The notes under the pieces were generated by a model. That model ran no database searches, was not told the origin of the DNA, and was given only the letters and a program-made list of their open reading frames with translations. A DNA stretch of 44,016 nucleotides from sequence record PZ379180.1; one strand, 5' to 3'. Each line of letters begins with the position of its first letter. Positions within the stretch are counted from its first letter, which is position 1. Position numbers and translations under genes: made by a program. Shown one piece after another: positions 3,219 through 39,062 of the stretch. This DNA is from a phage.

Positions 3219-4046
3219 ATGTTAACTATGAACGGTCAGAATCAGGGTGTTAAGACAAAACACCGGGAATGGCTGCATCACTTCGATAAATGGCAGAAGG
3301 TACGCCACGCTCTTGAAGGCGACCTTATCCGCTATCTGCGTAACGTCGGGAAGAACGAGCCTGACCAGACCTACGCAGCACAGCGACAGGAAGAATACGA
3401 GAACGGCGCTATCTGCTACAATTTCACCAAACGCACGCTGGCGGGGATGACGGGGTCAGTGATGCGCAAAGACCCTGAGCAGATTATCCCGCCTGAACTT
3501 GAGTACCTGTTGCACAACGCGGACGGTTCAGGTGTCGGGCTGTGGCAGCACGCGCAGGATACGCTGATGGAGATTAACTCGATAGGCCGTGGCGGGTTGC
3601 TGGTGGACGCCCCGGAAACAGCCGCAGCAACGGCGGCAGAGCAGAACGCGGGATTATTAAACCCGGTAATCGCATTCTATACCGCGGAGAACATTATCAA
3701 CTGGAGACTCACCCGCATCGGTTCAGTGAACCGCGTGACGATGGTTGTATTGCGTGAGGCATGGGAATACTCGGAACCAGGCGCTGAGTTTGAAACAAAA
3801 TTCGGCGAGCAATACCGCGTCCTTGACCTGATTGACGGTCGCTACCGCCAGCGCATCTACCGCTTCGATGCCGAAGGTGGCGCACAGGATGAAGTAATCG
3901 AAATCTTCCCGGAACTCGGCGAACAGTTGCGCGGTAAAATCCCGTTCACGTTCATTGGCGCAAGCAACAACGACGCCACTATAGACGATGCGCCTTTACT
4001 GCCGTTAGCTGAGCTAAATATAGGACACTTCAGAAATTCGTACTGA
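3219..4046 (+). CDS. portal protein, N-terminal fragment (frame break near 4030-4046)
   Basis: Position after terL; 275 aa ORF ends at TGA 4044-4046 and the next frame continues from 4024. Confidence 0.7.
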   Translation: MLTMNGQNQGVKTKHREWLHHFDKWQKVRHALEGDLIRYLRNVGKNEPDQTYAAQRQEEYENGAICYNFTKRTLAGMTGSVMRKDPEQIIPPELEYLLHNADGSGVGLWQHAQDTLMEINSIGRGGLLVDAPETAAATAAEQNAGLLNPVIAFYTAENIINWRLTRIGSVNRVTMVVLREAWEYSEPGAEFETKFGEQYRVLDLIDGRYRQRIYRFDAEGGAQDEVIEIFPELGEQLRGKIPFTFIGASNNDATIDDAPLLPLAELNIGHFRNSY

Positions 4047-4047
4047 T

Positions 4048-4701
4048 GTGGAAGAGGCCAGCTTTATAGTAGGTCAACCGACACTGTTCATTGCCCCCGG
4101 CGAGAACATGAGCATGGAGCAGTGGAAAGAAGCCAACCCACACGGCATACGCATGGGGTCGCGTTCAGGCCACAACATCGGCTCCGGCGGAAATGCGTTT
4201 CTGGTTCAGGCGGCGGAAACTAACCTCGCCAAACAGAACATGCTGGATAAAGAGAATCAGGCCATCCAGATTGGCGCGCAGCTTATCACCCCGACGCAGC
4301 AAATCACCGCGGAATCGGCCCGCCTGCAACGCGGCGCCGACACGTCAGTCATGGCAACAATAGCACGTAATGTAAGCATGGCGTATACCGATGCGTTGCG
4401 CTGGGTTGCGGGTATGCTTGGGCTTAGTGAAGATACTGAGATTGAGTTCAAGCTGAATATGGAATTCTTCCTGCAACCGATGACCGCTCAGGACCGCGCT
4501 CAGTGGATGGCGGATATTAACGCTGGCCTGCTACCCGCCACCGCTTACTATGCTGCGTTGCGCAAGGCAGGTGTGACTGACTGGACAGATGAGGACATTC
4601 AGAACGCTATTGAAGACGCACCTCTGCCGTTGGGTTCTGTTGCTCAGGTAGCGGGAGAGATTCCGCAGTCGGCGCAGCAACAGGACACCACTCAGCAGTA
4701 A
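4048..4701 (+). CDS. portal protein, C-terminal fragment
   Basis: 217 aa ORF in +1 frame starting 1 nt after the upstream stop; frame open from 4024. Confidence 0.65.
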   Translation: MEEASFIVGQPTLFIAPGENMSMEQWKEANPHGIRMGSRSGHNIGSGGNAFLVQAAETNLAKQNMLDKENQAIQIGAQLITPTQQITAESARLQRGADTSVMATIARNVSMAYTDALRWVAGMLGLSEDTEIEFKLNMEFFLQPMTAQDRAQWMADINAGLLPATAYYAALRKAGVTDWTDEDIQNAIEDAPLPLGSVAQVAGEIPQSAQQQDTTQQ

Positions 4702-19400: not shown

Positions 19401-20294
19401 TTGCAGGATTTTTATAGCAATAAGCTTCTTAGCGACCAACAGTACGAAAACGCCAAGACGCAGATTATGCTCTCTGCCGAACAGGCCCGCCAGGAAGAAC
19501 TGGACAAGAAAAGGAAAGAAGCCCAGGAGAAGCAGCAGAAAGGTGATGATTTCATGGCTCAGATTATGGGCCAGAACGCCACCGAGCTTGAGCTTCTGGA
19601 TATTCAGGAACAGCAGAAACTGGCGGTAGCCGATAAGTACCAGGAACAAGGTCTGATTAGCGAGAAGCAGTATCAGGCCGCGCTTAACGCCATCAACGAG
19701 CAGTACGCAACCAAGCGTGCCGACGCAACGGCAACAGCTTTCGGTAACATGGCTTCAAACATCGGGTCTGCGTTGGGCGAGGCTTCTGGTGCGTACAAGG
19801 CATTCGCTATCGTACAGGCCACTATAGCCACGTACACCGCAGCTATCGAGGCGTACAAGTCAACGGCTGCTATCCCTGTAGTCGGTCCGTTCCTGGCCCC
19901 AGTAGCCGCTGCTGCTGCTGTTGGGGCCGGTATGGCGCAGATTTCCGCTATCAGGTCAGCACGTGAACAGGGTGGACAGTTATCCGCCGGGCAGGCTTCC
20001 ACCATCGCCGAACGCGGTAAACCTGAGGTAATTATGCCGGCGGGGGCGTCGCGAGTACGCACCGCGCAACAAATGAAAGAGATTATGGGCCAAAACGGGT
20101 CTTCTTCCGGCCCATCTAATGTTACTATCGTAAACAACACGAGTTCGCAAATCGGCAACGTATCCACCGAGCAGGATGATGAAGGCCGTCTGCGTATCAT
20201 CATAGAAGAGCAAGTTGCTGCATCTTTGCAGAACAGCAACAGTAAGATTAGCAAGGCCCGCAAGGCCACAAGAAACGCGCCGGGGTTTAAATAA
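19401..20294 (+). CDS. tape measure protein, fragment 3
   Basis: Frame open from 19278; Q/E-rich coiled coil and hydrophobic AAIPVVGPFLAPVAAAAAVGAG segment. Confidence 0.7.
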   Translation: MQDFYSNKLLSDQQYENAKTQIMLSAEQARQEELDKKRKEAQEKQQKGDDFMAQIMGQNATELELLDIQEQQKLAVADKYQEQGLISEKQYQAALNAINEQYATKRADATATAFGNMASNIGSALGEASGAYKAFAIVQATIATYTAAIEAYKSTAAIPVVGPFLAPVAAAAAVGAGMAQISAIRSAREQGGQLSAGQASTIAERGKPEVIMPAGASRVRTAQQMKEIMGQNGSSSGPSNVTIVNNTSSQIGNVSTEQDDEGRLRIIIEEQVAASLQNSNSKISKARKATRNAPGFK

Positions 20295-20794
20295 TGAGCG
20301 ACTTATACTTTCCACGTAGCCTTAAGCCGGTGGTATCAAAAGGCTACTCAATGACCAGACGTAACAACGTCTGGAGTGTAGATTTAGCGGGCGGCGGGGT
20401 GCGTCAGGGGCGCGACACGTATTACGACGTGTTCCCGATAAGCGTAACTCTGATTACATCGGCATTGGGGCGGCAGGCGTTTCTGTCGTTCCTAGAAAAA
20501 GTAGACGGCGGTGCGTCAAGTTTCTGGATGGCGCACGACTTCGGCATGGGTATTGAGGATTACCAGGTAACCATTACGTCCACTATCGCCGAGTCCACCG
20601 AAGACGGGATTAACTGGACGATTACTTTCACGGCAACCGCCGAGAAATCGCCGTTCCAGGACCTTGAGAACCAGTGCCTTGTTAACAATCTGCCGGATTT
20701 GTATGGTTGTTATGGTGACGGGTTGGGGTGTTTCCTTAAAGCCTACGGAACCGCACAATCAACGTTTCCACGAATTTGGGAACCGATGCAATGA
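20294..20794 (+). CDS. minor tail protein (M-like)
   Basis: 166 aa ORF directly after tape measure, ATGA overlap. Confidence 0.55.
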   Translation: MSDLYFPRSLKPVVSKGYSMTRRNNVWSVDLAGGGVRQGRDTYYDVFPISVTLITSALGRQAFLSFLEKVDGGASSFWMAHDFGMGIEDYQVTITSTIAESTEDGINWTITFTATAEKSPFQDLENQCLVNNLPDLYGCYGDGLGCFLKAYGTAQSTFPRIWEPMQ

Positions 20795-27052: not shown

Positions 27053-28473
27053 TTCTTACCTCGTCTCTTCATGTAATTAAGCAACTCTTCCTGTACCGAT
27101 TTCTTCTCGTCAGTACGTGTGGCAACAACCTCGTCCAGCGTGTCTTTAGCGACGATGTGATAGAGGAACACCGGTCGCTCGTGCCCCGCTTGTTTCTGGC
27201 GGACCGGGCCTATACGCTCAACAACCTGCAAATAGTGCTCAAGGTTCCAGCCTTGCGAGATGAACGCCAGATGATGACCCCCGTCCTGTAAATTCAAACC
27301 ATGCCCGGCTGACGCAGGATGCACGCATAAAATCTCGATTTCCCCACGGTTCCACGCTTCCATCTGCTTGTTACCCTTAGCCCCTTTGGCGAATGCCTGG
27401 GCCTGCGGGAATCGCTTAAGGATGCGCTCCAGTTCGTGCTTGAACTGATAAGCCACCAGCAACGGCGCGCCCTGTAACTCCTCGACAATAGACTCCAGCG
27501 CATCCAGTTTCGTGTCGTGCACTTTCTCCCATTCTTTGGTTGCTTCGCCGTCTTCGCCCGTCACATACACGGCACCGGATGCAATCTGCAAGCACTTTGA
27601 GGTCTTCGCCGCAGCGTTAGCCGCTTCAACTTCCCCGCTCTCCAGTTCTGCGAATAACTTCTCCTCCATATCTATGTACGCCTGACGTGCTTTCTTCGGC
27701 AGGTCGATTTCAACCGGCACGATAACAGGCGCTTCACAACCGAACCACTCGGCGGCGTCAATCGTCAGACTGATGTCCTTCATCTTCTGGTGAATCTCGT
27801 TATCTGCACCAGGGCGGGCGTGATATTCACGTGCCATCGCAGATTTTCCTTTCTGTACCGAATTAAACCAGCGGTCGGTGAATGCTGTATACGACGAACC
27901 TAGGCGCTCGCCAGCGTCGATAAACCAGTTCTGGCCCCACAAATCCTTGAGGCCGTTTGGTGACGGTGTACCAGTCAGGTTAATAAAACGCTTAACCCTT
28001 CCGAAAGCCACTTTACTAAGCGCCTTTGCACGCTTGCTACCACCTGAACGGCTGCGGAATGATTTAAGCTTCGTGCTTTCATCTGCAACGATAACCGTAA
28101 AAGGCCAGTCGTCTTTGCCGTAGTAGTCAATCAGCCACTCGATAACCTCATAGTTCGTGCAAACCACGTTAGCATCTGACTCCAGCGCCGCGATGCGGCG
28201 CTTCTCTGAACCAGTCGCATCTACAACACGCAGACATGGGAATTGCCATTTCTCTTGCTCTGCAGGCCACGTACCAGACGCAACCCGCAGCGGGGCGAGG
28301 ATTAACACGCGGTCGTCATCATTAAGTTGGTAGTTTCGGAACAGTCGGTTTAATGCCCACAGTACGCTGCCAGTCTTCCCAGCGCCCATGCTTGCCCATA
28401 TGTTGCAGCGATGGTGCCGCAGCATGAACGAAGTCATGAGCTTTTGGTACTCACGCCTTTGAAACTTACTCAT
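27049..28473 (-). CDS. SNF2-family DNA helicase
   Basis: Walker A GAGKTG, DEST box (VIVADESTKLKS), LTGTP, C-terminal helicase motifs. Confidence 0.85.
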   Translation of the reverse strand: MSKFQRREYQKLMTSFMLRHHRCNIWASMGAGKTGSVLWALNRLFRNYQLNDDDRVLILAPLRVASGTWPAEQEKWQFPCLRVVDATGSEKRRIAALESDANVVCTNYEVIEWLIDYYGKDDWPFTVIVADESTKLKSFRSRSGGSKRAKALSKVAFGRVKRFINLTGTPSPNGLKDLWGQNWFIDAGERLGSSYTAFTDRWFNSVQKGKSAMAREYHARPGADNEIHQKMKDISLTIDAAEWFGCEAPVIVPVEIDLPKKARQAYIDMEEKLFAELESGEVEAANAAAKTSKCLQIASGAVYVTGEDGEATKEWEKVHDTKLDALESIVEELQGAPLLVAYQFKHELERILKRFPQAQAFAKGAKGNKQMEAWNRGEIEILCVHPASAGHGLNLQDGGHHLAFISQGWNLEHYLQVVERIGPVRQKQAGHERPVFLYHIVAKDTLDEVVATRTDEKKSVQEELLNYMKRRGKK

Positions 28474-29395
28474 TTACCGCCCCCATGAATGCCTTTATAA
28501 ATTCAGCAGCTACTTGCGGGACGATGGCATTGCCGTAACCGCGCAATCGTCCCACTCTGGCGGGTATCCCATCAGCCAGCGGGAATGTGCCGGGTTCAAC
28601 TGGCCTGAATTTTCCATCCCGGCATCCGAGCCAGTCTGCCTCTGACCAGAAGCCGTGATGCGGATTGGTCGCGATATTTTCAGTCCCTGCTCCGTTGAGT
28701 AGTCCAGCCTGTCGAAAGTCCGGTCCTTTCCGTCCTTGCGAATCACTGTCTCTCCGCTCCCTCTGTAATCGTTCGCGGTCGGCGTCGCCCATGCCGTCAT
28801 CGCGGCGGCCCACCCCAGTTTGTTCGGTTTCGTCCTGCCGTCTGTGCTGCGCATGTTCACGTCGTTTGTTATCAGTGATACTGCTGGCGTGGGCCAATCT
28901 ATGCGCGCCGAAGAAAAGTCGGTCGCGTTTGTGCGGTGCGCCGACGCTACAAGCTGGGAGTACGGCAAACCCGACGGCGTAGTTTTCTCCTTCCAGGTGA
29001 GTTTGTAAATCGCACATCCACGATTTTGCAATTGCTGGCGCAACCTGCTCCCCAAAGAGGACTGGAGGGCGGCACTCGCTGATGAGGTCGAGGAACACAG
29101 GTGCGAGGTGTCTCGGGTCGAACTGTCCGAGTTGCTTTCCCGCTGCGCTAAACGGTTGGCAAGGCGGGCTTCCCGTCCAGAGAGGCGCATCTTCCGGAAC
29201 TCCCGCAAGTCTGAGCGCGAGAGGCCAGCCGCCGATACCAGCGAAAAAATGACACTGGGTGAATCCGTCGAGGTCTTCTGGCTTAACTTCAGTAATGCTT
29301 CTTTCATCTACAACTCCAAAAGGTATGTGACCCTGTTTTATTAATTCACGCAGCCACGCGGCTGCGCCTTTATCCCATTCGTTGTAATAGTTCAT
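28466..29395 (-). CDS. DNA C5-cytosine methyltransferase (central third apparently out of frame)
   Basis: Motif I FAGIGGW, motif IV GSPPCQPFSAAG, motif VIII APHKRDRLFFGA, motif X GNAIVPQV in this frame; TRD and motif IX lie in overlapping frame 28510..29307. Confidence 0.75.
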   Translation of the reverse strand: MNYYNEWDKGAAAWLRELIKQGHIPFGVVDERSITEVKPEDLDGFTQCHFFAGIGGWPLALRLAGVPEDAPLWTGSPPCQPFSAAGKQLGQFDPRHLAPVFLDLISECRPPVLFGEQVAPAIAKSWMCDLQTHLEGENYAVGFAVLPACSVGAPHKRDRLFFGAHRLAHASSITDNKRREHAQHRRQDETEQTGVGRRDDGMGDADRERLQRERRDSDSQGRKGPDFRQAGLLNGAGTENIATNPHHGFWSEADWLGCRDGKFRPVEPGTFPLADGIPARVGRLRGYGNAIVPQVAAEFIKAFMGAVNE

Positions 29396-29982: not shown

Positions 29983-30114
29983 TCATTCCAGCACCCACAG
30001 ATAAATTGTTACTAACATACCTAATACGGCAACCATCATGCCGTATTGACCCTCGTGACAGTAGACACCGGCGGCGAATCCCGCCAGTACCGCAATAATC
30101 AGTTTACTTGGCAT
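29983..30114 (-). CDS. small membrane peptide (43 aa)
   Basis: Hydrophobic ORF MPSKLIIAVLAGFAAGVY..., below track cutoff. Confidence 0.25.
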   Translation of the reverse strand: MPSKLIIAVLAGFAAGVYCHEGQYGMMVAVLGMLVTIYLWVLE

Positions 30115-31492
30115 ATCGCTTCATCTCCGCACCTTCAGCTACAAGAGGGAACCCCTCCGCCCATTCCGGCAATTCGCACATCAACCGCTCAAGCTCTGCT
30201 ACATTGTATTCCGGTGAATCTGGTGTCTCGCAGATAATCTCATCGTGTACGTGAAGTACAATCGGGTAGCCGTTTGCTTCTACGTTCAGCAGGGCATTAG
30301 CCAGCAAATCACGGCACAATGCCTGAGTGCAGTTTTCCACCAGTTTACCCGAGTAGGTGTACTGGAACCCCCACTGACGGGTTAGCTGATTTTCGCCCTG
30401 GTACTTAATGCGCACGTTAGTAGACACCTTCCCGTCTCCATCTGTTTCTTTCGACACGCTCAACCCGACGCCCGGATAAGACATAACGCGACCCGACGGC
30501 AACGTCATGCGCAACCACCAACCAGCGACTTTGTTGCCGTTGTTGTCCGTTTCTACGTTACGCGAAAACTTAACACCCCGCGGTCCCGCAGTGAACTCTT
30601 TACCTGGATTGCGGATAGCCGCCATAGCCGCGTCTTCAATATCACGCCAGAAAGCTACTGTTTCCGGGTGTGACTCACGCCACATGCGCTTGATAGCGTC
30701 GCAGGTACGCCACACTTTCTTATCAAGAATATACGATGGTCGGTCATCCTTTTCACCTGGCCGCGGAGGTCGCTTGGCTTCCTGAATACGTGCCCATTCA
30801 TAGCCGCGTGCAGTAGCGGCCCATATATGGTTGGGGAATGTCCCGTCCATTGTTTTTGCCATATCAACCAGGTTTAAGCCGAGGTTCTTAGCAAACTGAA
30901 CGAAAGCACCGACACCACCAGCATAGCCAAGGCCCAATTCACATGCTTTACCTATCTGGCGTAGGTCACTACGGCTTTCGAGAATGTAATCAGGGTCCAT
31001 GCCGAACATCTTACCCGCGGTTACACAGTAAATATCCAATCCCGCACGGAAGGTATCGAGAGCGGTTTCTTCTCCCGCCAGCCATGCCAACCCGCGACCT
31101 TCAACGTTAGAGTAATCAGCTACGACAAACTTACGCCCGGCTTCCGGTATGATGCAGCTACGCACCGTCGATGCCGTTAGCTTGGCTACATCGAAACGGC
31201 GATGCGCGCGGCCTTTAAACAACAGGTCGATTCCGTAGGACAATGGGTGTGTTACCCTCCACCAGTCCTTCTCTGACATCCAGTCATAACGTACTTTCTT
31301 CTTTTTATTCTTCGGGTCGTCATGATAGTACCCGCGCGCCAGGTTCTGTGGCTGGAAGCCTTTACCCGCGAACCGTAACGTACGCTTTGCCCCACCGTAC
31401 TGGATACAACCGCGGCGTCGGTCGTCCGACGAGCGGCCTAACAGCAGCGGGTTATATTTCGTGGACGCTGTTGACGCGGCCCCGAGGCGCAT
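30104..31492 (-). CDS. DNA polymerase family A, polymerase-domain fragment
   Basis: Motif A VADYSNVEGRGLAWLAG, motif B RQIGKACELGLGYAGG, motif C LHVHDEIICE. Confidence 0.85.
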   Translation of the reverse strand: MRLGAASTASTKYNPLLLGRSSDDRRRGCIQYGGAKRTLRFAGKGFQPQNLARGYYHDDPKNKKKKVRYDWMSEKDWWRVTHPLSYGIDLLFKGRAHRRFDVAKLTASTVRSCIIPEAGRKFVVADYSNVEGRGLAWLAGEETALDTFRAGLDIYCVTAGKMFGMDPDYILESRSDLRQIGKACELGLGYAGGVGAFVQFAKNLGLNLVDMAKTMDGTFPNHIWAATARGYEWARIQEAKRPPRPGEKDDRPSYILDKKVWRTCDAIKRMWRESHPETVAFWRDIEDAAMAAIRNPGKEFTAGPRGVKFSRNVETDNNGNKVAGWWLRMTLPSGRVMSYPGVGLSVSKETDGDGKVSTNVRIKYQGENQLTRQWGFQYTYSGKLVENCTQALCRDLLANALLNVEANGYPIVLHVHDEIICETPDSPEYNVAELERLMCELPEWAEGFPLVAEGAEMKRYAK

Positions 31493-32370
31493 TTCGATAA
31501 TCGTGCGGGCGTCGTCAGGTAAATCATCATCGGTACCAGCAGGTCATTCAGCGTCGACTTCTGTGCGTTGTGTATGCGGTGTGCGGGGGCCAGTTCACGT
31601 AGAATAGGCAGAAAGTCCTTACCGGTAAGCGAGCCGCCGTATTTACGTTGAGCTTCTTCCTGTAACTGTGCCTTGTGCTTCTCTACGGCTTCAATCGCGG
31701 CTTCCGCCAGTGCGACGTCAACCTTAAATCCGCGGTCGTTGATTAACTGGTCAAGTTCCAGTACACGGTCTTCGAACTCGGAGTTACCCCAACGCGGCAG
31801 CTTATGGAAGACTTCACGCATCGCAGTGATGTCGCTCACGGCGTACCTGATGAACATCGCCCACTCGTCAGGGTGAGTTTCTGCGGTGTAGCGGCGGATT
31901 TTGTAGTTCTTCGGCGTCGGTTTAGAGAAACGCTTAATCAGAGCCTTGCCGCGTTTATCTTTCGCGTTGTCTGCAGACACGCCCAGCACTTCGCACAGCG
32001 CATCAAGAGAACCCGGCAGCGCGTGACGGAACGCCCAAATCATAGTATCAATGGTGTTACTTACCGGAATATCAAAGCCCCAGCAGTGTTTCATGATTAG
32101 GCGATCGAAAAGTCCACCGTTGTGCCATACCATCTTAATGCGACTGTTTGGCTTAACCAGACGGCGTAGAGCGCGGTGTAAATCCACGGGCATATCACTG
32201 CCGTCGGTGCAATCCCATACCTGTACAGGCTCGTCGTCAAAAGCGTAGGTACAGATAAGCACTTCGGTAGTTGGATGCTCGGCGTAAGCATAGGAGCCGA
32301 CTTTCTTCAAATCGGCTTCGGAGAATGTTTCAAAGTCTAAGTAAAGCAATGTGTTCATAGTCTGTACCAC
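31438..32370 (-). CDS. DNA polymerase family A, 3'-5' exonuclease-domain fragment
   Basis: Exo I motif LYLDFETFS; ORF overlaps the polymerase fragment by 55 nt in another frame. Confidence 0.8.
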   Translation of the reverse strand: MVQTMNTLLYLDFETFSEADLKKVGSYAYAEHPTTEVLICTYAFDDEPVQVWDCTDGSDMPVDLHRALRRLVKPNSRIKMVWHNGGLFDRLIMKHCWGFDIPVSNTIDTMIWAFRHALPGSLDALCEVLGVSADNAKDKRGKALIKRFSKPTPKNYKIRRYTAETHPDEWAMFIRYAVSDITAMREVFHKLPRWGNSEFEDRVLELDQLINDRGFKVDVALAEAAIEAVEKHKAQLQEEAQRKYGGSLTGKDFLPILRELAPAHRIHNAQKSTLNDLLVPMMIYLTTPARLSKCASGPRQQRPRNITRCC

Positions 32371-32692: not shown

Positions 32693-33316
32693 TTAACGGC
32701 GGCGACGTTCGCGACGCGGTGCGTCTTCTTCGTCGTCTTCCAGGTCATCGACGCTTGCAGCTACTTTAGAACCACCGAACGCTTTACCTTCGCCTACGTA
32801 TTTAATCGCCAGCAGGTTAACGCCGAGGACTTTATATTTCTGGCTGAACCAGATTTCTACGCTTACGTTAGCAACGCAGCCGCTGTAAACCTGTTCACCT
32901 TCAATCTGTTCACCGTCTACATTGAAGTCCTGCTCTACCTGAGTCTCGCCTTTTTTAGAGGTTACAATCAGCGGTTGTTTCTGTGCCTTCGCTTTGAAGT
33001 AGAAGCCTTCCGGGAAGTCTTCAAACGGATTGTCGCGCTCGGCAATGTCTTTAATCGCGCATTTATCCATGTGCTTACCTTCACCGTAGTTGGACTTCAT
33101 CCATTTCTCGGCAGCGGCTGCGCCTAACGCTTCTTCAACTACAGCGTAAACGGTGTCGTAGAGTGCATCGATTTGAGCATGGTCAGACGGCAGGATGATA
33201 GTCGCGCTGTACTGGCCTTTAGTGATTGAGCCATCATCGTTTTCACGGTCTTTTTCACGTTCAAATACGTTAACCCATGCAGTGTTTACTTTACGCAGAT
33301 TCAGTTTAATACCCAT
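32693..33316 (-). CDS. ssDNA-binding protein (T7 gp2.5 / DUF2815-like, putative)
   Basis: 207 aa with acidic patch SVDDLEDDEED near C-terminus; position in replication operon. Confidence 0.45.
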   Translation of the reverse strand: MGIKLNLRKVNTAWVNVFEREKDRENDDGSITKGQYSATIILPSDHAQIDALYDTVYAVVEEALGAAAAEKWMKSNYGEGKHMDKCAIKDIAERDNPFEDFPEGFYFKAKAQKQPLIVTSKKGETQVEQDFNVDGEQIEGEQVYSGCVANVSVEIWFSQKYKVLGVNLLAIKYVGEGKAFGGSKVAASVDDLEDDEEDAPRRERRRR

Positions 33317-33384: not shown

Positions 33385-33413
33385 ACTATAATAGCTAACT
33401 ATTCAGGTGTCAA
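33385..33413 (-). promoter_or_regulatory. promoter-like element with AATAG-N4-CTATT palindrome
   Basis: Minus strand TTGACA-17-TATAGT, palindrome 33390-33403 in spacer. Confidence 0.5.
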
Positions 33414-33447
33414 ATAAAATTTTGCAATAGGGATTATGTTCTCGAAA

Positions 33448-33603
33448 TTAAGCATATTGGTACGGTTCGAACTCATCCTCTACAGGGTAGTATCGCATCA
33501 TGGTACCGTTCAAGAACGTGAACGATTCCGAGTGTAGATACCCATCCCAGTGCCATACCATCAAAAAATCTTTATCAGTCGGCATTTCATTTACTTGAAT
33601 CAT
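33448..33603 (-). CDS. hypothetical protein
   Basis: ATG at 33603 with AGGAGG RBS (track ORF 33448..33633). Confidence 0.35.
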   Translation of the reverse strand: MIQVNEMPTDKDFLMVWHWDGYLHSESFTFLNGTMMRYYPVEDEFEPYQYA

Positions 33604-33920
33604 TCTAAATCCTCCTCTGTAACTTGATTCCACTCAGGACGTTTGTCATCCGCCGTTGCGACGCATGGCGCACCGGGCTTACGGGTAATGAAGTCTTTCA
33701 GTTCTTCTTCCGGTACAATTTTAACCGCTTCGGTCGGTGTCATAAGAACTACCTTTTGCAGCATAGTACCGTACTTCTCGAATACTGCATCGGTATCTTT
33801 CCACGCACGATTACCCGGGCGTCCTTCAACCAGTTTATACCCCGGCACTTTCTTACCGGAATGTAACGCAGCAGCCATAGCTTTCTCAACCTTGTCGATG
33901 TGCTGGCGCAACAACGGCAA
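33600..33920 (-). CDS. C-terminal part of Cas4-like nuclease (frame open up to about 34093)
   Basis: Same frame upstream encodes CQWCRFSEQC cysteine triad; C-terminus TEEDLE. Confidence 0.5.
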   Translation of the reverse strand: MPLLRQHIDKVEKAMAAALHSGKKVPGYKLVEGRPGNRAWKDTDAVFEKYGTMLQKVVLMTPTEAVKIVPEEELKDFITRKPGAPCVATADDKRPEWNQVTEEDLE

Positions 33921-34084
33921 CTTCTCATACTCAGCTACGAGTTGCTCTGGCGTAAGCTCAAGTGCAAAGTCGTCCTCCAGTTCTTCCGCCAGCCCCGCGT
34001 TAACGGTTTTTGTACGCGCTGCGCATTGTTCAGAGAACCGACACCACTGACAACCATCTACCGACGGCTTGAAGTCCGACGCTT

Positions 34085-34840
34085 TCAGGTTCTTTTACCC
34101 CGGAAATAGGCATCAAGAGCCAACAGCGCCCGTTTCTGTGCAAACTTAGCGAACAGTTCCAGACCTTCAACCGAGATGTCCCACTCCGATGCACCGCCAG
34201 CGTACGGCTGGAAGATGACCAGTCGAACGGTTGTTATGCTATAACGTCTCTTGAGTCGGCGATAAACGCCGAGAGCATAAAGCATAAGCTGCTTGTTTTC
34301 TTTCGCTTCGACACGATGCCGCCCGGTTTTCAGGTCGCAGATGATAAGCATGTGTTCGTCGGTGTTAGCCAGTTCCTGTATGGCAACAAGGTCAGCAGTT
34401 CCGAACGTCTCAACGCCTTCATACCCCGGATGCAATACCTCAGTAAGATTAACACGCATTTCCAGCTTGGCGTAAGTCGCTATATCGATAATCGCCTTGC
34501 AGTAGTCGGTGTACTTGCGCACCTGCTCAATCATGTCCGCCGTAATCAGTACCGCGCCTTTCATCGGGCTGATTAGTGCCTTAATCTGGCCTTTGCCTTC
34601 ATCCAGCACGTAAGCACCGACTTCACGCTCTAACGGCAGCGCAGTTCCGCGAATATAAGCGTTGAGATGGACCTCAGCTATGGTGTGCATTGCCGTGCCT
34701 AATACAGCGGCTTTACCTGACGTGTTAGGGGTATCTTTTTCACAGGCCAGTGATGCCGCGCAACTTAGCCACTTTTTAGCCCCTGACGGCGACAGTAAGG
34801 CATGTACATCGTTATTGCCGCCGCGTTCTTTAAGAATCAT
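34085..34840 (-). CDS. PD-(D/E)xK nuclease, Cas4/RecB-like (N-terminal part)
   Basis: ICDLKTG (D-x-K) and QLMLYALG (Q-x-x-x-Y) motifs; N-terminal Cys. Confidence 0.6.
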   Translation of the reverse strand: MILKERGGNNDVHALLSPSGAKKWLSCAASLACEKDTPNTSGKAAVLGTAMHTIAEVHLNAYIRGTALPLEREVGAYVLDEGKGQIKALISPMKGAVLITADMIEQVRKYTDYCKAIIDIATYAKLEMRVNLTEVLHPGYEGVETFGTADLVAIQELANTDEHMLIICDLKTGRHRVEAKENKQLMLYALGVYRRLKRRYSITTVRLVIFQPYAGGASEWDISVEGLELFAKFAQKRALLALDAYFRGKRT

Positions 34841-35199
34841 CGTAAACTCTCCAAATACAAGTTTAATGCCTGTAACTGTTCTTCTGTAGGAATGAAAGAA
34901 TCATCGCGATGTAAGTCGCTTAACTGTTGCAACATTCCTGCGAACTGACGTCTTGCGTCAACAGCGTCCATGTGATGCTTTTCACTTTTATATATTAATG
35001 TTTTCGGGTAATCCTCAAGCCTGCCAGACGATTTATTCACGCGGAGCGCACGAGCTTCATGCACAATGTGAATGTACTTTTTGCCGTTTTGTAACACAGT
35101 AGCTACGCCGCTGCTCTTTCTGCGGTCGCCGACTGTGTAAACCTTGTCGCCACTACGCAGATTAAGCCACCATTTATCGGTCATACCCTGTTCTCCCAC
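34837..35199 (-). CDS. hypothetical protein
   Basis: 120 aa ORF, stop-start overlap with neighbours. Confidence 0.4.
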   Translation of the reverse strand: MGEQGMTDKWWLNLRSGDKVYTVGDRRKSSGVATVLQNGKKYIHIVHEARALRVNKSSGRLEDYPKTLIYKSEKHHMDAVDARRQFAGMLQQLSDLHRDDSFIPTEEQLQALNLYLESLR

Positions 35200-36603: not shown

Positions 36604-36798
36604 TTGCACCTTTATCGGGTATCTTTTGCGAAACTTACCTAACCCGCAGTACACGCTGTAAGCCTCTGTGTAACTGAACACAACATGATACCCGCGCCCA
36701 TAAGGAACTACGTTAAGAACTTCTACTACTTCGCCTCTGTGGTTGGTGTATTTATTACCTTTCAGTTCGTCGCTTACTTCTTTAAATTTACCGCTCAT
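36601..36798 (-). CDS. hypothetical protein
   Basis: 65 aa ORF coupled to primase gene (overlapping stop-start). Confidence 0.4.
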   Translation of the reverse strand: MSGKFKEVSDELKGNKYTNHRGEVVEVLNVVPYGRGYHVVFSYTEAYSVYCGLGKFRKRYPIKVQ

Positions 36799-39062
36799 TC
36801 CAAATCCTCCTCTGTCACTGTCAACATTTCATTCGGTTCGTATATTGTCTTTGGAATCTTGTTATCAGTTATTCTGGTGTTCAGCCTGTAACGACCTGGG
36901 ATTATCTGATTGTTTTCGTCAGTACCCGGAACAAGATACCCGGCCTCAACCATTTTCTTAATCTTCCCGCGTTCTATGGCTTCTTTGGAGTTAAACGCCT
37001 TTGCGTTTGGGTCTGACTGTGCGAGCTTATTCGCCGCGGCGACTGTGATGCCTTCGTTGCCGTTGTAGGTTCCTTCCGCCAGTTCAAACGCCGCGAGTAT
37101 CGTGGCCTCCGAACTGTTGACGGCGTTCTCTACGGTTTTACGTACATTTTCTTTACCTTCTTTCGTCAACCCTTCTTCCCGCTCTTTCTCCTCGTCAGTT
37201 TTGAACGGCTCGAAACCCCACGGCATCAACACAAGCGCCTTGTGTGGTTCAGGCAGGTCCAGGTTTACGATTGTGCCGTATTCCTCTGTGCTACCCAGGA
37301 ACTCAACCGCTCGGTATTCTTTAGGTGGCGGCGCTTCACGGAACTGTACCGACTCCAGCACCATGCCAACCGTCTTCTGCTGAGGCCCGTGCTTGAATTT
37401 CGAGTGATATACGTTTATCTGACGGTCGGTTGCACGTTCGATTGTCAGTTCCACATCAACACCCGCATACAGCGCCCCACTGCCGCGTGCTTTCTTTCCA
37501 CCCTTCGGCGTATGGTGGACAACGCCTACTGCGGCTTTAGTTGCATCGCGTACTTCTTTCAGAATGGCGATAACTTTACCCATGCCGATTGCTGTTGATG
37601 AACTGTTCTCGTCGAACTTATCAATCGTCAGTGCCAGGGTCTGGTTAAGGGTGTCGAACGCAACCATGCCAATTGGCTCGTCGCCAGCAGTTTCGCGCAT
37701 TAACTTAATCAGGCTTTTAAGTTTGCCGACTTCGCCCATATCGATGACATGTACATAATCTTTACCTTCCTCGCCGTATTTAGCCGCGAGCGCATCAATA
37801 CGTGTACGTGTGGCTGCCCCACCCTCGCCGTCGATATAGAAATGGTGACAACGCTGGGTGTCAGCCCCTGCAAACCGGTATCCGGCGGCGCTCAGGTACA
37901 TCATCCCCAGCGTATAGAATGATTTGTACGTGCCCGATTCTCCGACGATACCCCAGATACAATCCGACGGCATGTACCCCTCAACGACGAAATCAGCCTT
38001 TACCGGCTCCGGTAACTCGTCCTCCTCTGAGTCCTCGTCGTCTTCCAGGTCGTCGAGGCTGCATGAGACAGATTCACGCGCCCCCCAACCGATGGCCTCT
38101 GCGACTTCACTGAACGGCAGCCCGGTCGCATCGCACGCGTACTTCCACACCTCTTTCGGTGACAGGCCTTCTGTCGCCGTAATGTCTGTGTCGTGAATCA
38201 TGGTTACGTTTGGCGCTTCATACCCCTCGCGCGGGAAGCACAGCAGGAAGTCGTCCGGGCGCGGTGTCGGGTCGCTGTAGTTTTCGGCATGTTCCGGTGT
38301 GGCTGGCATCTTAAGGCCGCGCGGCGTCATGACGCCGCCGTACTCAAACGCCAGTGCTTCAAACGCGTCTGTAAACGCGGTGCGCAGTTCTTCCGGTATC
38401 TGGTAATCCGATGCGCTGCTAACGTCAACGGCTGGGATGCCTTCCAGTAACTCGTTCGGGTCGATCAGGTCGTTGCGGCGCGACCAGATAACGGTAGCGC
38501 CGACCGGCGGCAGGTACATCGGCTGCGACAGAGTGAACCCGCTGCGGTCCGCACCCATGCCTTTGAAGAAGTGCTCCAGCAACCCATGACGAACACGGAT
38601 GATATCACCACCCTCAACTGGGCGGGCCAGCGGCATGACGACGCGAAAGCGAGGCGACTCATCGGTATGTGATGCCGTGGTGTAGAGACACATCGCCCGG
38701 CGGCTGCGATTAACCAGGCGCACCGCTTCCTGGTACTCTTCCGGTGTTGCACTGTCGAAGTCCAGATACGCCAGCGACGATTTGCTCACAGACGCATCGC
38801 AGCGATAAAAGAAACCTTTACGCGCCTGCTTAAAGTCTCCAGTTTCCGGGTCTTTTACGGTGCTGTGCGTAGAGTCGCACGCGGCTGTGATGTAGCCAGG
38901 GGCTGTCTTCGGGTTAATCCCGTCACGAATGGCATCGAGCGGCTGAATTAACTCTTTCAGGTCGTCCAGTGTTGCCGTGTGTGTGGTTCTGACGTTTATA
39001 TCCTTTTTCTCTGCCCGCGCGTTGCGACGTGACCACGAGTAGGATAAAATTACATCGGACAT
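36795..39062 (-). CDS. DNA primase-polymerase / helicase (PrimPol-like N-domain plus RecA-like ATPase)
   Basis: LDFDS catalytic-like motif in N-domain, Walker A GESGTYKS, Walker B-like VAFDTL; 755 aa; C-terminus TEEDLE. Confidence 0.7.
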   Translation of the reverse strand: MSDVILSYSWSRRNARAEKKDINVRTTHTATLDDLKELIQPLDAIRDGINPKTAPGYITAACDSTHSTVKDPETGDFKQARKGFFYRCDASVSKSSLAYLDFDSATPEEYQEAVRLVNRSRRAMCLYTTASHTDESPRFRVVMPLARPVEGGDIIRVRHGLLEHFFKGMGADRSGFTLSQPMYLPPVGATVIWSRRNDLIDPNELLEGIPAVDVSSASDYQIPEELRTAFTDAFEALAFEYGGVMTPRGLKMPATPEHAENYSDPTPRPDDFLLCFPREGYEAPNVTMIHDTDITATEGLSPKEVWKYACDATGLPFSEVAEAIGWGARESVSCSLDDLEDDEDSEEDELPEPVKADFVVEGYMPSDCIWGIVGESGTYKSFYTLGMMYLSAAGYRFAGADTQRCHHFYIDGEGGAATRTRIDALAAKYGEEGKDYVHVIDMGEVGKLKSLIKLMRETAGDEPIGMVAFDTLNQTLALTIDKFDENSSSTAIGMGKVIAILKEVRDATKAAVGVVHHTPKGGKKARGSGALYAGVDVELTIERATDRQINVYHSKFKHGPQQKTVGMVLESVQFREAPPPKEYRAVEFLGSTEEYGTIVNLDLPEPHKALVLMPWGFEPFKTDEEKEREEGLTKEGKENVRKTVENAVNSSEATILAAFELAEGTYNGNEGITVAAANKLAQSDPNAKAFNSKEAIERGKIKKMVEAGYLVPGTDENNQIIPGRYRLNTRITDNKIPKTIYEPNEMLTVTEEDLE

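Follow-up and report, generated by a model that had tools for sequence, protein, structure and literature searches.

A one-base homopolymer undercall as the probable cause of a split DUF2800 nuclease gene in a Kagunavirus genome sequence

The 44,016-nt stretch of phage DNA analysed here (PZ379180.1, referred to as the window) is a complete Kagunavirus (Guernseyvirinae) genome in which a PD-(D/E)xK nuclease gene looks split because the sequence is short of one A. Comparison with relatives makes it highly probable, at roughly 0.9, that the split arose from a homopolymer undercall of one base in an assembly rich in errors, whereby a single A would have been lost from an A5 run at 34093-34096 and one gene would read as two. 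To judge from its sequence, the product is an ordinary 413-aa DUF2800 nuclease encoded by a single gene, and thus of an already known kind.

As written, the minus-strand ORF 34085..34840 encodes 251 aa with the C-terminus ALLALDAYFRGKRT (...DAYFRGKRT), followed by TGA. The frame lying one base back opens directly after a stop with KNLKASDFKPSVDGCQWCRFSEQCAARTK, reads through CQWCRFSEQC and reaches its first stop at TGA 33600-33602; its translation (KNLKASDFKPSVDGCQWCRFSEQCAARTKTVNAGLAEE...) takes in the program-listed ORF 33600..33920. The two frames join at a coding-strand A4, GGT AAA AGA ACC TGA, which is T4 on the plus strand, and the nuclease span measures 1241 nt in the window versus 1242 nt in relatives (Table 1). 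A preliminary description made from the letters alone had placed the ORF end, the -1 frame and the T-run exactly, and the cysteine triad that it located in this frame, running on into ORF 33600..33920, is confirmed by translation. Its proposal of one nuclease of about 410 aa agrees both with the 413-aa coding sequences of relatives and with a joined translation that extends to the last position of the DUF2800 profile.

Table 1. Coordinates of the nuclease gene, its key residues, neighbouring genes and frame-breaking indels in the window.
Feature	Position	Strand	Remark
Complete DUF2800 / RecB-like nuclease gene	33600..34840	-	413 codons plus stop with one A restored
Apparent 251-aa ORF	34085..34840	-	residues 1-249 authentic; R and T out of frame; then TGA
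Missing-base site, A4 run on coding strand	34093..34096	-	A5 in BEU33 and BEU35
C-terminal 164 codons, one base back	33600..34093	-	Fe-S ligand motif, helical linker, C-terminal domain
Nuclease stop codon	33600-33602	-	TGA
C-x2-C-x5-C motif	34023..34052	-	Cys264 34050-34052, Cys267 34041-34043, Cys273 34023-34025
Cys27	34760-34762	-	within 251-aa ORF, which also holds H52
D150	34391-34393	-	within 251-aa ORF
D169 / K171	34334-34336 / 34328-34330	-	within 251-aa ORF
Q184 / Y188	34289-34291 / 34277-34279	-	within 251-aa ORF
Gp2.5-like / Enc34-type ssDNA-binding (annealing) protein	32693..33316	-	PF10991 E 1.1e-15; PHROG 112 E 6.1e-42
DNA polymerase I gene	30104..32370	-	split in window into 462-aa and 310-aa ORFs
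Portal break	~4040 (4040-4048)		275-aa and 217-aa ORFs
Neck protein break	12452		window-only indel at GGCC site
Second tail chaperone break	17752		C6 to C5
Tape measure break 1	~19025		C5G4 to C4AG3
Tape measure break 2	~19311		GG to G
DNA polymerase I break	31532-31533		2-nt insertion; ORFs of 462 and 310 aa
hyp42 (small gene after nuclease) break	33462		insertion at GGCC site
Nuclease break	34093		T5 to T4 (plus strand)
Further window-only indel	43464		T8-9 to T7
Further window-only indels	314, 40288		insertions at GGCC sites

Profile searches place the two pieces end to end in one family. The upstream ORF covers positions 1-205 of Pfam DUF2800 (E 2.8e-42), and the downstream 164 aa, taken by themselves, account for positions 221-368 (E 6.2e-22), a half-and-half division of one profile that lies far beyond chance. 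In the joined protein, residues 13-402 align with DUF2800 (PF10926) positions 1-368 of 368 (E 2.9e-67; 227.9 bits, the curated cut-off being 21 bits), and matches to PDDEXK_1 (PF12705, E 5.7e-10) and to PHROG 69 'exonuclease' (E 4.7e-121) were also obtained. The nuclease-family match of the joined translation, for which the preliminary description had suggested a profile search, does continue past residue 250, and it reaches the end of the model.

A full-library search returned 11,182 relatives at E<=0.001, the best 150 representatives of which are mostly 360-450 aa long and match residues ~12-403. In a conservation alignment of 145 diverse homologues with 30-59% identity, C27, G48, H52, G147, D150, D169, K171, G173, Q184, Y188, C264, C267 and C273 are invariant (145/145). 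These include the catalytic motifs, namely D150 (motif II), D169-L-K171 (motif III) and Q184-xxx-Y188 (motif IV), and a cysteine layout consisting of C27, N-terminal to the nuclease core, together with C264, C267 and C273 in an exact C-x2-C-x5-C spacing. The triad highlighted in the preliminary description is therefore conserved in every homologue aligned. A C-Xn-C-x2-C-x5-C arrangement binds a [4Fe-4S] cluster in AddB, Dna2, EXO5 and Cas4, and by analogy the four cysteines constitute a presumptive iron-sulfur 'staple'. In the C-terminal domain, G329, G334, K336, V338, G340, R345, W347, D399 and R401 are conserved. Residues ~329-401 (window 33639-33857) carry a near-invariant G-x4-G-x-K-x-V-x-G-x4-R-x-W ... 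D-x-R pattern and are confidently folded in a structure model of an orthologue; the corresponding part of Bas14_0045, the DUF2800 nuclease of phage Bas14, is described in a recent preprint as predicted to be disordered.

This distribution of conserved residues bears on a reading in which the window encodes two separate genes, namely an independent nuclease of 251 aa and a protein of 106 aa starting at TTG 33920, both of which do appear in the mechanically compiled ORF list. Between its opening stop and TTG 33920, the downstream frame contains no ATG, GTG or TTG, and for this reason the cysteine motif is not translatable on its own as written. Two genes would thus strand 58 conserved codons in untranslatable sequence, including those for every invariant cysteine but C27, in an architecture found in no homologue and with an exact 251-aa product that matched no database record, which makes such an arrangement extremely unlikely.

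The gene is intact in the relatives of the phage. Over positions 33400-35000 the nearest records are those of the Escherichia phages BEU33 and BEU35 (99.8%), which are themselves unverified and unannotated, followed by phiEc3/phiEc4 and Golestan (96-97%). At the nuclease position, phiEc4, Golestan and phiEc3 each carry a single 1242-nt coding sequence of 413 aa, labelled as a PD-(D/E)XK nuclease, an exonuclease or a DUF2800 protein. BEU33 and BEU35 read GGT AAA AAG AAC CTG (GKKNL), an A5 in place of the window's A4, and Golestan and phiEc3 encode the same residues as GGC AAG AAG AAC CTG, free of any homopolymer. Once repaired, the window gene and its BEU33 counterpart disagree at a single nucleotide out of 1242, and all 163 codons beyond the break agree. 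Codon changes relative to Golestan in the C-terminal part comprise 22 synonymous and 3 non-synonymous ones, from which purifying selection on the downstream frame in this lineage follows. Lengths of 412-429 aa are found for the 120 closest proteins in the database, at least 80% of the nuclease lies in one place in 1481 of 1538 phage records, and none of the 145 representative homologues ends before residue 300. Exact-pattern scans of IMG/VR returned no match for either the A4 or the A5 version.

Interrupted versions of this gene exist elsewhere in the databases. In the Kagunavirus records PQ474795 and OR061068 the nuclease is annotated as two to five small 'hypothetical proteins' with breakpoints unlike that of the window, and in a database fragment, P0145, the frame shifts a few codons upstream of the window's break site. 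Since all three break elsewhere, there is no recurrence at this exact site, and error-fragmented copies of the nuclease gene are, on sequence comparison, evidently common in public records. A different kind of variation is found in Jerseyvirus, whose orthologues are 474 aa long (Salmonella phage T102, NC_073211, locus 301-1725): just past the Cys motif, following residue ~288, 51 aa are inserted in frame into the linker, which is also the internal segment in which the structure model is least confident.

Both frames might in principle be used if the A run caused a programmed -1 shift of the ribosome or slippage during transcription, giving products of 251 and 413 aa. The shift needed is indeed -1, and the site is A-rich with the rare codon AGA following it; however, the sequence there (G GGU AAA AGA) does not form an X XXY YYZ heptamer, since a shifted tRNA-Lys would need to pair with UAA, and a run of four A's falls short of what transcriptional slippage requires. 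The RNA of 121 nt comprising the site and downstream sequence has a minimum free energy of -33.3 kcal/mol versus a shuffle mean of -33.55 (z = 0.08), and its folding is thus not better than that of shuffled sequences. Moreover, the gene occupies a single frame in every relative examined, in some of which the homopolymer is replaced by AAGAAG, and the fact that other assemblies break it at different places likewise argues against a programmed event, which can hardly be entertained.

The nuclease break is not the only one of its kind. When 46 Golestan proteins were compared with the window by tblastn, abutting matches in different frames were detected at seven other sites, with protein identities to relatives of 97-100% on either side of each break. 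In alignments of each break with BEU33, BEU35, Golestan and phiEc3, the indel was peculiar to the window every time; the tape measure, for instance, appears in the ORF list as pieces of 359, 98 and 297 aa. With the portal, tape measure, DNA polymerase and further genes all broken, the phage could not grow, and errors of the consensus are the economical explanation of the breaks. The nuclease break would then be one instance among about eight or more of a residual consensus error of the homopolymer-plus-motif type. At 31534, 40288, 33462, 12452 and 314, the GGCC (or GGC) of relatives has become GGTACC, GGTAC, GCGTACC or GGCTCC, and the portal site at ~4040 has a similar insertion with GTAC, in a less conserved stretch in which the original motif is presumed. 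These GGCC-associated insertions look like an error signature tied to a motif. Among the genes of the phage is one for a C5-cytosine methyltransferase (28469-29395, PF00145), for which comparison gave a generic M.HhaI/dcm match, and given this enzyme, miscalling of modified bases is a possible origin of the insertions at GGCC sites.

The shared signature has to be weighed against the alternative that the nuclease, unlike the other genes, underwent a genuine 1-nt deletion that inactivates or truncates it, as a recent loss-of-function allele that could have been selected, for example, if the nuclease triggers host defence. Such loss is biologically conceivable: phage Bas14 stays viable when Bas14_0045 is truncated, and then evades retron IX (bioRxiv 10.64898/2026.07.14.737667). 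Because loss of a DUF2800 nuclease is tolerated there, a real frameshift in the nuclease alone keeps a small probability, homopolymer runs being natural mutation hotspots. Nevertheless, around eight other frame-breaking indels with the same signature affect essential genes, for which a single cause is the simplest explanation, and the identity of the C-terminal 163 codons to those of BEU33 reveals no decay, so that a genuine deletion is considered improbable. It is very improbable that the window represents a real loss-of-function allele whose nuclease would lack three of the four Fe-S ligands and possibly escape a defence system such as retron IX.

With the undercall as the favoured explanation, the restored protein can be compared with structurally characterised nucleases. 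An AlphaFold2 model was made of P0001, an orthologue with 97% identity, and it is confident (pLDDT 92.4, pTM 0.85): pLDDT drops under 50 in just the first 9 residues, is ~73 in the linker at 281-300 and lies mostly above 90 in the part after the break. Foldseek searches of the PDB retrieved, in this order, the AdnA nuclease domain (6ppr, E 1.7e-5), MGME1, Dna2, AddA/AddB, EXO5 and Cas4. Sequence profiles likewise detected AdnA (6ppu, E 6.6e-5), as well as 9iac, a Cas4-sized PD-(D/E)XK protein whose CxxC...C aligns with C264, C267 and onwards, and phmmer with the joined protein against PDB sequences gave no matches. Like AdnA/AdnB, AddB, Dna2 and EXO5, the phage nuclease combines a PD-(D/E)xK core bearing the D / D-x-K / Q-xxx-Y motifs with one N-terminal and three C-terminal cysteines. 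It differs from these enzymes, with which it shares 12-18% identity, in being a stand-alone protein of 413 aa without a helicase domain and in possessing a conserved C-terminal domain of ~90 aa that they lack.

The relationship to Cas4 is more distant. Cas4 (PF01930) belongs to the same superfamily, shares the C-Xn-C-X2-C-X5-C arrangement and gives a fold match (type I-C Cas4 8d3q_J, E 1.1e-3), but this match is weaker and ranks below five other RecB-type families, and the phage protein is about twice as long and is encoded within a replication module of the phage instead of beside cas1/cas2. In a Pfam scan of the joined protein at E<=0.01, only DUF2800 and PDDEXK_1 were matched and Cas4 (PF01930) was not; cas genes are absent from the gene annotations of the annotated relatives. 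Of the Cas4/RecB-like Fe-S nuclease put forward in the preliminary description, the RecB-type likeness in sequence, predicted fold and cysteine triad is thus supported, whereas identity with Cas4 is not, the protein being closer in sequence and fold to end-resection nucleases of the RecB/AdnA/AddB type. In a survey of PD-(D/E)XK proteins, DUF2800 was classed as RecB-like (PMC3424549).

The nuclease gene is followed by a small gene, the gene for the Gp2.5-like protein, a 92-aa ORF and polA; the companionship of PolA and an SSB-like protein, as predicted in the preliminary description, is therefore present. The nuclease stop and the start of the small gene overlap as ATGA (33600-33603), which suggests translational coupling. 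A duf2800-gp2.5-polA module has been reported in phages that infect Firmicutes and Gram-negative bacteria (PMC8093625), and the window shows this arrangement. The DUF2800 exonucleases Golestan gp43 (YP_009620123), phiEc3 gp43 and Bas14_0045 have the same full-length profile match and lie in the same module. The Kagunavirus orthologues, which have the same length of 413 aa, 95-97% identity and also Gp2.5-like SSB and PolA neighbours, are set apart from the window only by the A missing from it at 34093-34096. Within this module the nuclease would resect DNA ends and feed the Gp2.5-like annealing protein and PolA in recombination-dependent replication, a putative role.

Other parts of the window also depart from the relatives. 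At 20294-20794, the homologue of Golestan gp26 (labelled a hypothetical protein in Golestan and a minor tail protein in phiEc3) has 166 aa versus 472 aa in Golestan, and between window positions 20740 and 20791 about 0.9 kb that BEU33, BEU35 and Golestan contain is missing, possibly owing to a genuine deletion or to a collapse during assembly. The helicase-primase region at 36798-37988 shows ~33% protein identity to Golestan gp50 amid flanking genes at 95-100%, a pattern that suggests a replaced replication module (mosaicism). The tailspike is closest to that of vB_Eco_K-01.

Taken together, the annotation at this locus should be one 413-aa DUF2800 exonuclease. With at least seven other genes split likewise, the entire 44-kb sequence should be polished before weight is given to oddities at the ORF level, and 'unexpected stops', 'overlapping ORFs' and 'split genes' in the window are suspect and should be compared with relatives first. 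The nuclease itself is an unremarkable component of a recombination module common among phages, and it has attracted some recent interest as a trigger of retron IX defence.
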